Below are positions 56,907 through 58,343 of a stretch of DNA of 64,000 nucleotides, in pieces. The notes beneath the pieces are model-generated. The model saw only the letters and a program-made list of their open reading frames with translations. It did no database searches and was not told the DNA's origin. Where the stretch lies: the IMG/VR virus record IMGVR_UViG_3300014598_000002. One strand, 5' to 3'. Source of the stretch: a virus (Duplodnaviria; Heunggongvirae; Uroviricota; Caudoviricetes). Positions within the stretch are counted from its first letter, which is position 1. The number at the start of each line of letters is the position of its first letter. A program made the position numbers and the translations under genes.

Positions 56907-57239
56907 CAACGACAAGTAGACAAATCAACTCGTTGACATTGGCGGTCACAAATTGAGGATTTCTATAAGAGTCCGTTGATCGCCACTTTCCCCACCCCTA
57001 CAACCTACCCCAGCCCAGGCGTGACAAGGCATTTAAGCCAATTACACCCATAAGAAAACAAATAAATAACACATCAACGTAAAGTCAACGCTTTCCCCTG
57101 ATTTGGTCTAAAAAGTTGACGTTTTCGCACGCCATCTCTTATACCCAAAATCCTGCGCACCAGAATCCATCTCTCTGCGACTAAAACGCCAAAAACGACT
57201 CGTGATACCACCCCAAAACAGACACACTCAGAAGCGCTC

Positions 57240-57850
57240 CCGTTGCGTTATACTGGACGTCTAAACAAGTTGTTTTCATGCACAAGAAAACAAGTTAACC
57301 ACACCCACAGGAAACTCAGAGACGCCATTAGCCGCAATCCCGGAAACACCCACCTCTTCCTGTCAGGCTACCGAAAAGACCCACCTCTTTGCCACAGGCT
57401 ACAGACCACCCACCTAATCTTCCCAGGCTACCGAGAACGCAGCTCGCGCACGCAAACCCCTACACGCCATTACCCAATACACGGAGAAGAACAGCCAGAA
57501 CGAAACCCCGGACAAACCCAGACTAGAACAGGAACCGTCGCCATCTCGTTTACCCACCATTACCCCGAAAGAGAGCGCAAATTCCTGAATAGCAGGGAAC
57601 GCCATTACTTCATATGCGGACAACAACAAAAGCGCCCTAATGCCATTACCCACACTTCCATCATTTCACGTAAACGAAGAGAAAAGCGCACCTGCCATTA
57701 CTCCATACACGGAGAAGAACACTCACCAAAACGACGATAACAACCCAGACGAAAACACAGAGAAAAACCGCCTCAAGAACAACGAAACCACATACGCCGG
57801 TAGAGAGAACAAACCACCCATTTCACCCAAAGGAATACTCGCCGTATAGA
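57240..57850. repeat. non-coding, strongly strand-skewed (C/A-rich, G-poor on +) region with about 32-nt direct repeats (ACCCACCTCTT-N6-CAGGCTACCGA x3; GCCATTAC-N5-ACACGGAGAAGAACA x2)
   Basis: Repeats at 57347-57445, 57466-57495 and 57683-57712. The 165-aa track ORF here is composition-driven and probably spurious. Confidence 0.5.
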
Positions 57851-57989
57851 GCGTTATCAGGGGGAAGGTTTGCACGTCCACAGGAGAGAAAATCCGTAGA
57901 GATTTAACTGGAGGTATAAGTGGGAAGAGGGAGAGGGGTATCGCTACTTTCTCCGTAGAAATTCAAGCCATAGTTTTCATCCCTCGTAA

Positions 57990-58200
57990 TGTCTCTCTCC
58001 ACCCCTTCGGTCAACCTTCGGGCCATCCAGGGAAAAGGCCATGTCCCTTTTCAGGAACGAGGCATAGCCGTAGGGAAAAGGCTGGAGGTTTTCAGGGAAA
58101 CGGTGGGAATCCCGCTATACGAACCGAGAAAAGGCTGGCTGCCGGTCGGGAAACGGGTACATCCCGGTTCAGAGCGAGGGACGGCTGCGGGAGTATGCCT
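57990..58200. repeat. array of GGGAAA(A/C)GG(C/T) short repeats (at least 5 copies), G/A-rich on + strand
   Basis: cagggaaaaggcc, tagggaaaaggctgg, cagggaaacggtggg, gagaaaaggctgg, cgggaaacgggta. A related cluster lies at 61300-61375. Confidence 0.5.
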
Positions 58201-58343
58201 TTTCCTCATTCACCTGAAGAGTGCGGGAATTGGTGAATCCCGCAGTTGAGCGTTGAGACCAGATCAGCTTCGCACGCTCATATCGGGAAGCCAGATCTAG
58301 TGTAAAGGGTTACGGGTTTTGGTGGTGAAATCGCCGAGGACGT

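Follow-up and report, generated by a model that had tools for sequence, protein, structure and literature searches.

The analysed window, a 64,000-nt stretch of DNA, belongs to a phage-plasmid of the SSU5/pHCM2 family whose full circle is a 110-kb plasmid. Between the variable cargo genes and a conserved cluster of small early genes lies a gene-free module (Table 1). The initial annotation had described a non-coding region of about 1.3 kb at 57000-58300; the non-coding character was borne out, and both limits had to be moved outward. Position and size of the module are conserved in all relatives, and no fewer than 859 plasmids in PLSDB contain the stretch; in a 61-kb plasmid of Enterobacter ludwigii, the right half only is retained. 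We found no paper describing this region. Among clinical Klebsiella, E. coli, Enterobacter and Salmonella, phage-plasmids of the SSU5/pHCM2 type are common; they carry resistance and cargo genes, and the controls of their lysis-lysogeny decision and of their lytic replication are essentially unmapped.

Table 1. Features of the non-coding module and of the second repeat locus (positions in the 64,000-nt window).
Feature	Position	Strand	Remarks
Non-coding module	~56,930 to ~58,340		1.4 kb; no genes
Block A hairpin	56931..56990	+	Left module boundary; outer stem, inner stem, invariant loop
Block A outer stem	56,940-48 / 56,977-85	+	TGGCGGTCA / TGATCGCCA
Block A invariant loop	56,960-69	+	TTTCTATAAG
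CGTTGAY/GTTGAC boxes	56,931(+), 56,974(+), 57,073(-), 57,084(-), 57,115(+)	both	Within 56931..57122
A/C-rich tract	56985..57850	+	G- and T-poor, C>G; plus-strand RNA without predicted structure
Orphan promoter/5'-UTR element of the family	57038..57061	+	CCAATTACACCCATAAGAAAACAA; palindrome without its right half, no ORF behind
Pb, sigma-70-like promoter candidate	57116..57145	+	TTGACG-N18-TATACC; faces right into the A/C tract
TTGCGTTATACT, then inverted family palindrome AAACAAGTTGTTT, then half site AAGAAAACAAGTT	57243..57296	+	Palindrome 57,263-75; half site 57,284-96
Three tandem bipartite repeats	57348..57434	+	ACCCACCTCTT-N5-CAGGCTACCGA; period 29-31 nt
GCCATTAC family, 28-nt copies	57,466-93; 57,601-28; 57,694-721	+	Extra cores
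Composition switch	57850..57990	+	C-poor, G/A-rich patch and conserved block TATAAGTGGG...TCGC...CGTAGAAATTCAAG
GGGAAAMGG(C) repeats	58,030; 58,073; 58,095; 58,148 (58030..58156)	+	Irregular spacing, 22-53 nt
Variable right end of module	58157..58340	+	Poorly conserved, indel-rich; reaches the 81-aa gene
81-aa gene	58,344-58,589	-	Convergent; present only in the SSU5/Enterobacter lineage
Second locus, upstream part	60591..60656	+	Two bipartite repeats immediately ahead of the 160-aa gene's promoter
160-aa gene	60,766-61,248		Bracketed by the module's motif pair; 3 kb downstream of module
Second locus, downstream part	61341..61371	+	Two GGGAAACGG copies, ~90 nt past the stop codon of the 160-aa gene

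The left boundary of the module is a hairpin, here referred to as Block A, with a fold energy of -13 to -26 kcal/mol in every lineage. Its stem varies under the invariant loop (TCAACCTCTC/GAGAGGTTGA in the relative L080, TCAACTTTTG/CAAAGGTTGA in L315), with two double compensations and C-to-U wobbles, and this was the only covariation detected in the module. Of 28 variants, 22 fold into a more stable hairpin on the plus strand than on the minus strand, and the G-U wobbles in the stem fit the plus strand. Block A is not a canonical intrinsic terminator, since it is followed by a C/U-rich tail (CACUUUCCCC or CACUACUCCCC) instead of a U-tract, and the terminator scan did not list it. The GTTGAC boxes, candidate operator sites, are invariant or near-invariant in alignments of 8 and 15 lineages and have equivalents in L080 and L315. 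The box at 57,115 overlaps the -35 element of the candidate promoter Pb (TTGAC-N18-TATAYC), which is present in 116 of 120 related sequences, including L080 and L315 with a different spacer sequence, and invariably sits 155-157 nt beyond the loop motif. The T that is conserved at -7 is missing from Pb: position 6 of its -10 hexamer is C, for which reason the consensus promoter scan passed it over. The orphan element upstream of Pb matches gene-preceding elements at 60,231, 55,905 and 50,001 by 91-95%, and its counterpart in L080 has the full palindrome. Promoter elements of this family type face rightward; no convincing minus-strand promoter for a G/U-rich RNA was found by eye or by scan. The left end also contains one A+T-rich patch, a 40-bp stretch at 57,040-57,080 with 72% A+T, and the elements just beyond Pb (57243..57296) are conserved in all eight aligned relatives.

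Most of the module is occupied by a tract of unusual composition. At 56,976-57,825 the plus strand has an A+C content of 0.68, the most extreme of any 850-nt stretch in the window (mean 0.506, sd 0.027; z ~6.5). This strand had been called almost G-free and C/A-rich; it is indeed A/C-rich, while G still accounts for 16% of its bases (A 36%, C 33%, T 16%). In 78-nt windows from 56,950 to 57,800, C outnumbers G by a factor of 1.5-3.1, and the four longest plus-strand runs with C/G>1.5 in the whole 64 kb all fall inside the tract. The flip of the bias near 57,850 was also seen by us, with G rising to 0.29-0.35. In L080 the equivalent patch has a C content of 0.10, and the conserved block of the switch is recognisable in both L080 and L315. 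The A+C bias survives in the variable columns of the alignment (0.66) and is kept in L080 and L315, where the sequence of the tract cannot be aligned.

The predicted folding of the two strands differs strongly. The plus-strand RNA of 57,250-57,849 gave -92.5 kcal/mol, the weakest fold of 318 sampled 600-nt windows (mean -181), and the minus-strand RNA of the same segment gave an ordinary -175 kcal/mol. The A/C tract has a consensus fold energy of ~0 kcal/mol, with a thermodynamic z-score of -0.4 compared with -1.8 for the G-rich tail. In the tail, the covariation term of an 8-sequence RNAalifold analysis was positive (unfavourable) and a sliding alifold scan found weak hairpins only (-3 to -7 kcal/mol). 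Pairing of the A/C half with the G-rich half was considered and dropped, the duplex energies being no better than those of shuffles in the window (-229 vs -224.5 +/- 10) or in L080 (-264 vs -252 +/- 9). Searches against Rfam 15 returned no gathering-score match in the window except tRNA, and none in 56,700-58,700 at E up to 5. A structured ncRNA locus, one of the candidates named at the outset, is thus disfavoured, as the A/C tract is essentially without conserved or predicted structure.

Several families of short repeats are superimposed on this composition, every copy sharing its strand with the flanking genes. Three copies of the bipartite repeat were present as first reported, with a spacer of 5 nt and not 6, copies 2 and 3 carrying 1-2 mismatches. 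Copy numbers are three in E. coli, two in Klebsiella and three in L080 (as CACCACTC-N-CAGGCA), and four of five lineages have the first CAGGC at +401 to +406 relative to the loop. Two copies of GCCATTAC-N5-ACACGGAGAAGAACA had also been reported and were located at 57,466 and 57,694; a 75% copy lies at 57,601, with further GCCATTAC/CCATTAC cores at 57,642 and 57,557. GCCAT[TC] cores number 3-8 per lineage, on the plus strand only, and occur in L315 as well. In the tail, a count of at least five GGGAAA(A/C)GG repeats was reduced to four exact copies and a degenerate GAGAAAAGG near 58,125; shuffles of the segment would yield 0.01 copies of GGGAAAMGG. The core conserved across lineages is GAAAMGGC, with four copies in L080, and L315 has four copies of AGAAACGGC. 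Furthermore, 16 GGA and 14 RGGA within 450 nt make the tail the window maximum for these motifs. A lack of repeat conservation in related elements had been proposed as grounds for discarding the functional candidates; this objection falls away, since the repeats are conserved in the relatives compared.

Across the 110-kb plasmid, these repeat families are nearly confined to the module and to a second locus around a 160-aa gene. The further clusters noted earlier were recovered there, two bipartite copies before the gene and GGGAAAMGG at 61,341 and 61,363 after it, the latter being the only copies of that motif on the plasmid outside the module. L080 has a bipartite equivalent upstream of its homologue of the 160-aa gene and divides its copies 4+2 in the same way, those after the homologue lying at 8,579 and 8,613. 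The 160-aa protein (AlphaFold pLDDT 88) gave no fold match and has no recognisable DNA-binding or initiator fold that would mark it as a binder of the repeats. An FljA-family protein is encoded at 63,120-63,683, and a 128-aa regulator is encoded beside the integrase.

The module showed no sign of protein coding. The window's 206-codon open frame is interrupted in the SSU5, Enterobacter, E. coli and Klebsiella relatives, and an 86-codon frame, which is without a conserved start, changes frame in E. coli. Substitutions in six sub-regions compared with four relatives had no codon periodicity (chi-square p 0.3-0.99), in contrast to the 160-aa gene, used as a control in the third-position substitution test (p 6e-5 to 5e-10). 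Five ORFs inside the module had no match in Pfam. A 165-aa ORF had been suspected to be an artefact, rightly so, as open frames are not conserved among the relatives, and the ORFs annotated on the module in public records (SSU5_108/109, CYRAN_103/104) are spurious.

We consider it highly improbable that the module is a pac site, a plasmid origin or a protein-coding gene with an unusual composition, even though such repeats are found in pac sites and origins and the public records annotate ORFs here. A pac site, proposed initially, is disfavoured by the terS-like and terL genes ~12 kb downstream (record positions 51.3-53.2 kb). The plasmid origin was excluded by the position of repA at 25,374-26,438 (minus strand) and of its TACTCTCTACAGTGGTT iterons at 24.8-27.0 kb, 30 kb away, their motif being absent from the module. 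Direct-repeat arrays in non-coding DNA are common to the module and to this RepFIB/P1-type origin with its 21-bp iterons, but the sequence, period and location of the repeats differ and no rep gene adjoins the module. A parS-like partition centromere, also suggested at first, is disfavoured: a type Ib parA (domains PF13614, PF09140, PF01656) and its 117-aa partner are encoded ~43 kb away on the circle (record 81.5-82.5 kb), outside the window. Nor does the module match type III toxin-antitoxin (ToxI-like) loci, in which nearly identical repeats in tandem immediately precede the gene of an endoribonuclease toxin.

A single layout recurs in at least three deep lineages, in some of them without any sequence similarity that could be detected, and consists, in order, of the hairpin with invariant loop and covarying stem, Pb, an A/C tract of ~800 nt, a C-poor patch and four GAAAMGGC repeats. 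Because the same layout is maintained in distant relatives, comparison of the sequences indicates that the module is a real, previously undescribed, lineage-specific control element of SSU5-family phage-plasmids. It is among the most constrained non-coding parts of the phage-plasmid. If selection truly targets the absence of RNA structure, this would be an unusual case of conservation by composition and geometry instead of sequence. The geometry of the first 400 nt is strictly fixed, which suggests that proteins form a phased complex with the DNA at the promoter. On a different view, the module would function purely at the level of double-stranded DNA, offering regulators, nucleoid proteins or ParB-like proteins a landing platform with a silencer or boundary role, its composition being a by-product. 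The fixed spacing and the inverted-repeat boxes would fit such a platform, as would the two ParB_N-domain genes ~8-9 kb downstream and the location of the module exactly at the border between variable cargo and conserved core. We nevertheless regard this as clearly unlikely: it leaves unexplained the one-strand bias at non-conserved positions, the uniform orientation of the motifs and the wobble-type changes in the hairpin stem, and the true partition operon is far away.

Published strand-resolved RNA-seq of E. coli LF82 lysogens carrying the phage-plasmid Cyrano, a single 66%-identical relative in the uninduced state, allowed the expression of the region to be assessed (PMC9928086, S1 Table). 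The upstream gene CYRAN_102 was expressed at 45-590 FPKM, CYRAN_103, corresponding to window positions 57,038-57,417, at 0-14 FPKM (0 in LB), and the downstream CYRAN_105 at up to ~220 FPKM (PMC9928086, S1 Table). From CYRAN_102 to CYRAN_103, that is, across Block A, the RNA level drops ~270-fold to near silence inside the module, and no transcript of the A/C tract was observed in these uninduced lysogens. Beyond the module, every early gene has a promoter of its own, and these genes are active in the lysogen.

The reading that we prefer, with a probability of roughly 0.35, is that the module is a rightward, untranslated leader, silent in lysogeny, that serves as a Rho-type transcription gate or insulator. 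The Block A hairpin in the plus-strand RNA would end the transcripts of the cargo genes and could thus cause the RNA drop seen in Cyrano. Pb, 156 nt further on and embedded in GTTGAC boxes, is silent in the lysogen, probably through repression via these boxes. Firing of Pb, or read-in by polymerase, would produce an untranslated RNA of 700-800 nt, under selection to be structure-free, C-rich and G-poor. Since RNA of this kind is the type of substrate on which Rho loads, the A/C tract may serve for conditional termination or insulation; factors that modulate it could bind at the repeated motifs CACCUCUU..CAGGCUACCG and GCCAUUAC, and the G-rich GAAAMGGC tail would mark the 3' end of the unit. 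As far as its sequence goes, the tract has the attributes of a putative rut region, being untranslated, richer in C than in G, unstructured and at least ~80 nt long.

A Rho-type gate would place the module beside lambda nutR-tR1 (rutA/rutB), the P4 early leader, which has a Rho-dependent terminator under RNA immunity, and the Salmonella mgtA/corA leaders. Like these it would have an untranslated, C-rich/G-poor, unstructured RNA, preceded by an early promoter, followed by early genes and silent in the lysogen, and its repeat core CACCUCUU is similar to the lambda boxA/rutA core CGCUCUUA. In contrast to such leaders, the tract is 5-10 times longer, A-rich besides C-rich and of fixed geometry across lineages, and the module has three further conserved repeat families and the G-rich repeat tail; neither a boxB-like hairpin nor a gene for an antiterminator was found. 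Several observations weigh against a gate, among them the atypical -10 hexamer of Pb, the missing U-tract of Block A and the silence of the tract in the Cyrano data. Rho requires neither 800 nt nor conserved motifs, and conserved blocks with fixed-length spacers are the classical signature of a protein-DNA assembly, for example at origins, and would be superfluous for an unstructured RNA. Moreover, the need for an insulator is not obvious, as the downstream early genes have their own promoters and are active in the lysogen.

The same blocks and spacers would suit a lytic replication origin (oriLyt), the main rival of the gate, which we hold to be a serious possibility, if on balance an unlikely one. 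Here the hairpin, GTTGAC boxes, A+T patch and promoter would form a transcription-activated initiation complex, the bipartite repeats would be iterons of a phage initiator, possibly the 160-aa protein, and the second cluster would be an enhancer. Such an origin would agree with the absence of genes, with the several independent families of direct repeats and the further cluster 3.2 kb from them, and with the constant length of the variable spacers (Pb +155 to +157; CAGGC +401 to +406); the enterobacterial oriC was first recognised through conserved blocks with constant-length spacers. The module is silent in the lysogen, and plasmid maintenance can dispense with it, as seen from the E. ludwigii plasmid that has the right half only. 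A lytic origin is also needed somewhere, as a DnaE, a DnaB-like helicase and a primase-like protein are all encoded by the phage itself. However, the replication genes are located 45-65 kb from the module around the circle, and DnaA boxes are neither enriched nor conserved: two 8/9 matches in the module are not conserved, and the whole window has 16 compared with 12.4 expected. The cumulative GC skew of the whole replicon, a check recommended in the initial annotation, rises monotonically with no inflection at the module. The 160-aa protein has no recognisable initiator fold, and a single-strand bias of 800 nt that persists at unaligned positions would be left unexplained.

Compared with known phage origins, the module resembles P4 ori/crr and SPP1 oriL/oriR in being gene-free and in having multiple families of direct repeats, another cluster a few kb off and one or more internal promoters; the P4 crr region and the second origin of SPP1 are examples of an enhancer-like distant repeat cluster. 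It resembles the enterobacterial oriC in the constancy of spacer lengths despite sequence divergence. It differs from all three in lacking an adjacent initiator gene and DnaA-box conservation, its 800-nt strand-asymmetric tract has no counterpart there, and its repeats are unrelated to the element's own RepA iterons. Deciding between a lytic origin and a transcription gate would provide a handle on induction control, on minimal replicons and on the correction of annotations.

The composition of the tract could also be taken to mean that the module encodes a trans-acting long ncRNA of the early lytic phase, a linear, unstructured sponge, in which the A/C tract would titrate Rho or a G/U-rich sRNA or RNA-binding protein and the GGA/GAAAMGGC tail a second factor in the manner of CsrB. 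We judge this improbable. In its favour are the extremely and asymmetrically structure-free plus-strand RNA, a composition conserved without sequence conservation, linear motifs iterated on one strand only and the GGA/RGGA maximum of the tail; the recurrence of the motif pairs in the 5' and 3' flanks of the 160-aa gene mRNA is as would be expected of a competing RNA. Against it, no RNA is detectable in the lysogen, Rfam offers no family, and the fixed geometry of the left 400 nt would be unneeded. A candidate run complementary to GcvB (ACAACAACAAAA) is not conserved in the E. coli relatives, and GGGAAAMGG does not correspond to the CsrA consensus. The module shares with the protein-sponge RNAs CsrB/CsrC, RsmY/Z and Pseudomonas CrcZ a non-coding nature and many copies of short purine- or A/C-rich motifs on one strand, and its GGA density is the highest in the window; yet the motifs are not in conserved hairpin loops, there is no Rfam match or abundant RNA in the lysogen, and GGGAAAMGGC is unlike the sites bound by CsrA.

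A bolder proposal, to which we likewise attach little probability, is that the module represents a new class of phage element, built around a long RNA or single strand under selection to lack structure altogether, ~800 nt of A/C-rich, G/U-poor sequence preserved in composition and not in sequence. In its furthest form, this RNA would be made early in lytic growth and trap Rho or another single-stranded RNA binder in trans. If so, a trans-acting RNA would shift both host and phage-plasmid from terminated to read-through transcription, and would be the RNA counterpart of Psu of phage P4, a protein inhibitor of Rho.

Some of the short motifs may resemble parts of other systems, namely the P1 parS boxB (TCGCCA), the RfaH ops element (GGCGGT) and the anti-Shine-Dalgarno sequence (CACCUCUU), besides the GcvB complementarity. 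Triple arrays of GGGAAAMGG also occur in genome contigs, where the matches listed came from diverse unrelated genomes outside the enterobacteria, many of them MAGs.

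This element belongs to the SSU5/pHCM2 family of phage-plasmids. Besides terminase and siphovirus structural proteins it encodes an IncFIB-type repA, a type Ib parA, a DnaE of its own, a DnaB-like helicase and a primase-like protein, along with a tRNA-Asn (GTT). Its gene-free module at 56,930-58,340 was 99.9% identical to Enterobacter hormaechei plasmid pECL189-2 (NZ_CP047967) and 93% identical to Salmonella phage SSU5 (90,403-91,817). At the equivalent location, 1.4-1.6 kb were devoid of credible genes in all relatives compared (SSU5, two Enterobacter plasmids, Cronobacter, two E. 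coli and two Klebsiella lineages and phage Cyrano), and this gap had variable cargo (metG, restriction-modification, ivy, lprI and others) on its left and a conserved row of small plus-strand genes on its right. The 81-aa gene at the module's right end is restricted to the SSU5/Enterobacter lineage and is missing from the E. coli, Klebsiella and Cronobacter relatives.

Table. Features of the module and of related loci (window coordinates; CYRAN ORFs of phage-plasmid Cyrano are placed at the corresponding positions).
Feature	Position	Details
tRNA-Asn (GTT)	847-921	
Classical plasmid origin	24,800-27,000	repA 25,374-26,438 (minus); DnaA-like boxes 26,152-27,095
CYRAN_102	ends ~30 nt before Block A	45-590 FPKM (PMC9928086)
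Block A	56,931-56,990	first conserved sequence past variable cargo
Block A hairpin	outer stem 56,940-48/56,977-85	inner stem, loop TTTCTATAAG; -13 to -26 kcal/mol
GTTGAC/CGTTGAY boxes	56,931-57,122	5 copies, both orientations
Orphan TGnGATAAT-AACACCAAcAAGAAAACAAnnTGTTTA	57,038-57,061	copy of replicon-wide element
CYRAN_103	57,038-57,417	0 FPKM in LB, maximum 14 (PMC9928086)
Pb (promoter candidate)	57,116-57,145	TTGACG-N18-TATACC
TTGCGTTATACT	57,243-57,296	followed by inverted copy of replicon-wide element's palindrome and half site
A/C tract	next after 57,243-57,296	contains bipartite repeats and GCCATTAC family
ACCCACCTCTT-N5-CAGGCTACCGA (bipartite)	57,348-57,434; 60,591-60,656	three copies; two copies
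GCCATTAC-N5-ACACGGAGAAGAACA	57,466; 57,694	weaker copies 57,601, 57,642, 57,557
C-poor G/A patch	from 57,850	with conserved block TATAAGTGGG ... CGTAGAAATTCAAG
CYRAN_104	57,912-58,275	1-20 FPKM (PMC9928086)
GGGAAAMGG repeats	58,030; 58,073; 58,095; 58,148	module, 58,030-58,156; second locus 61,341, 61,363
Variable end	right of repeats	up to convergent 81-aa gene
81-aa gene	58,344-58,589 (minus)	PHROG 23830
CYRAN_105	first early gene downstream of module	up to ~220 FPKM (PMC9928086)
160-aa gene	60,766-61,248	
Second gene-free region	61,249-61,890	direct repeats 61,529-61,591; convergent intrinsic terminators 61,694-61,889
FljA-family gene	63,120-63,683 (minus)	Pfam PF03614, E 6e-97; PHROG 1444
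Replicon-wide element	8,757; 50,013; 55,170; 55,486; 55,866; 55,917; 57,263; 58,702; 59,292; 60,247; 60,739	outside window, in NZ_CP047967: 51,243, 81,462, 84,391
Chi (examples)	59,131; 59,192; 60,674(-); 61,284(-); 61,453	

In agreement with the initial annotation, the module is non-coding. Long open frames exist on its plus strand because stop codons require T and mostly G. The window's 206-codon frame is broken in SSU5 and every other lineage, and the one comparably long frame of several relatives lacks a conserved start and is a different frame in E. coli. Substitutions were spread evenly over codon positions in six sub-regions compared with four relatives (p 0.3-0.99), against 38/25/86, 27/24/78 and similar counts in the 160-aa gene used as control (p down to 5e-10). 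Gene calls on the module vary between records and overlap the repeat arrays: hypothetical proteins are annotated in JQ965645 (SSU5_108/109) and OV696614 (CYRAN_103/104), and an automatic call covers the repeats on the minus strand (3,352-3,663) of L080, a deeply diverged relative on a Logan contig. Given the unconserved frames, the missing codon-position bias and the lack of any Pfam match to the module, these annotated ORFs are almost certainly spurious.

The compositional bias described for the tract is real but was overstated as nearly G-free: the plus strand at 56,976-57,825 contains 36% A, 33% C, 16% G and 16% T, and its A+C fraction of 0.68 is the window maximum among 850-nt stretches (mean 0.506, sd 0.027). 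The flip near 57,850 was borne out, with G rising to 0.29-0.35 and C falling to 0.13. All repeat families initially described were recovered, although the bipartite spacer is 5 nt and not 6. Across the complete 110-kb plasmid, GGGAAAMGG is found at the six tabulated sites only and CCACCTCTT at just three, all within the module or a second repeat locus centered on the 160-aa gene about 3 kb downstream. This confinement to two loci, with 0.01 GGGAAAMGG on average in shuffles of the 450-nt tail, indicates that the repeats did not arise by chance. The 5'/3' motif pair also brackets the 160-aa gene, which fits signals acting on transcription units.

The stretch was present in at least 859 PLSDB plasmids (60-99.9% identity) from Klebsiella, Escherichia, Enterobacter, Salmonella, Citrobacter, Cronobacter and Shigella, and the Block A motif in 67 IMG/VR contigs. 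Its repeats are conserved in related elements: all 15 lineages examined (mutually >7% different) carried 3-5 CAGGC repeats and 3-8 GCCAT cores with an A+C of 0.67-0.74 over 600 nt, and 13 had 2-5 copies of GGRAAMGG, the two exceptions being rearranged. In the window copy the CAGGCW, bipartite and GCCAT motifs had zero occurrences on the minus strand, and GGRAAMGG had one there and four on the plus strand. Architecture is conserved further still. L080, whose 160-aa marker protein is 49% identical and for which seven metagenomic relatives were detected, and the metagenome contig L315 showed no BLAST similarity to the window (~50 nt in the L080 relatives), and both share its layout: a hairpin with identical loop, GTCAA/TCAAC boxes, a Pb equivalent (TTGAC(A/T)-N18-TATA(C/T)C), a tract of ~800 nt (A+C 0.63-0.70) with CAGGC-type and GCCATTAC-type repeats, a C-poor patch (C = 0.10 in L080), a ...GTAGAAATT/CATAAATTCAAG block and four tail repeats each (GGGAAACGG in L080, AGAAACGGC in L315). 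L080 also matches the window in how GGGAAACGG is split, with four copies in the module and two 3' of the 160-aa gene. Geometry is likewise conserved, with Pb beginning 155-157 nt downstream of the loop motif in 116/120 sequences, L080 and L315 among them, and the first CAGGC falling at +401 to +406 relative to that motif in four of five lineages. Fixed spacers in the first 400 nt are expected of phased protein-DNA contacts and speak against a purely RNA view. A landing platform acting purely at the DNA level seems quite improbable.

The tract is under compositional selection, and several results point to the plus strand, in single-stranded form, being its target. The A/C bias is equal in strength at variable alignment columns (A+C 0.66) and overall, A-C exchanges were the largest difference class in distant comparisons (24-33% in the tract vs 8-13% in the tail), and the bias is retained beyond alignable sequence in L080 and L315. 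Plus-strand RNA of 57,250-57,849, at -92.5 kcal/mol, folded most weakly of 318 sampled 600-nt windows from both strands (mean -181, sd 24), and its minus-strand counterpart was ordinary (-175 kcal/mol). The window's four longest plus-strand runs of C/G >1.5 (scored over 78 nt at a time) all lie in the tract. Consensus folding energy was ~0 throughout the tract in the 15 lineages and no Rfam family matched the module, disfavoring the structured non-coding RNA initially suggested; pairing between the module's two halves was also rejected. The Block A hairpin at the left edge covaries: its stem is TCAACCTCTC/GAGAGGTTGA in L080 and TCAACTTTTG/CAAAGGTTGA in L315, with two pairs altered on both sides and C-to-U changes facing G, and the inner stems differ in three window-type sub-lineages (GGAUUU/GAGUCC, GAUUCUU/AAGAAUC, GAG/CUC). 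It was stabler as the plus strand in 22/28 variants.

Expression was assessed in Cyrano, a phage-plasmid of E. coli LF82 with a module of 66% identity, from a published re-analysis of strand-resolved RNA-seq (five conditions, each in duplicate, all without prophage induction; PMC9928086, S1 Table). FPKM fell ~270-fold from CYRAN_102 to CYRAN_103 in the '6 h in medium' samples, and therefore cargo transcription ends at or just past Block A. In this uninduced lysogen the tract gives no stable RNA, and the early genes use their own promoters. A trans-acting sponge RNA made from the module seems quite improbable.

We tentatively read the module, with a probability of roughly 0.35, as a transcription-control unit that is silent in lysogeny. 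The terminator-like hairpin of Block A would close the cargo operons, and a repressor-gated rightward promoter, Pb, set at a fixed distance from the hairpin, would fire upon induction. A long untranslated leader, structure-free, richer in C than in G and equipped with binding motifs, would be an ideal substrate on which Rho may act, while the repeats may bind modulators and the G-rich tail would form the last part of the unit. The chief rival is a transcription-activated lytic origin with the bipartite repeats as iterons, which better accounts for the fixed spacing and repeat families than a transcription-control unit does, but is a poorer account of the 800-nt one-strand bias and of the distance from all replication genes, and we consider it rather unlikely. 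Almost all genes of the replicon point the same way, which makes its cumulative GC skew climb monotonically; the module's strand switch is therefore a local feature and no replication signature. A plasmid origin was excluded, as repA and 21-bp iterons at 24.8-27.0 kb share nothing with the module repeats. The partition site and pac site also proposed initially are disfavored, with the par operon ~43 kb and the terminase genes 12 kb distant. We found no description of the region in the literature searched. In part it works like known leaders, gates or origins, and its combined properties (conservation acting through composition and geometry, a long tract free of structure, and 5'/3' pairs of repeat sets used again around a gene) could not be assigned to a named family.

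Partial modules were also seen in PLSDB: a 61-kb Enterobacter ludwigii plasmid has the right half only, and several Klebsiella plasmids of 190-390 kb have only the first ~770 nt. The module is therefore dispensable for plasmid maintenance and a potential recombination breakpoint.

The replicon-wide element TGnGATAAT-AACACCAAcAAGAAAACAAnnTGTTTA, with a start codon 10-40 nt on, precedes most small early genes as well as parA, the DnaB-like helicase, a terS-like gene and a methylase. Of its palindrome, the window contains 11 copies and the whole plasmid 14. The element resembles an extended -10 promoter joined to an operator or 5'-UTR site of palindromic form. A gene for a full-length FljA-family protein adjoins the early-gene cluster in all lineages, L080 and L081 included. 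The fliC leader carries a CAAGUUGU core. FljA-like proteins prevent fliC mRNA from being translated (PMC2652032), so the phage protein may recognise the shared 5'-UTR element in RNA form and not as DNA.

Chi (GCTGGTGG) has 18 copies in the window (8 plus, 10 minus) vs 1.6 expected from shuffles, which comes close to the one Chi per roughly 4.5 kb of the E. coli chromosome; two same-orientation copies flank the 160-aa gene and the module itself contains zero. The second gene-free region (~640 nt; L080 8,487-9,150) closes the rightward early cluster and also holds two GGGAAACGG copies; in L080 this position contains a tandem array of CTAAA(C/T)GGCTA/CTAAACTG units. At the classical plasmid origin, the 21-bp iteron TACTCTCTACAGTGGTT is present in >20 copies in both orientations on either side of repA, together with 3-4 DnaA-like boxes.
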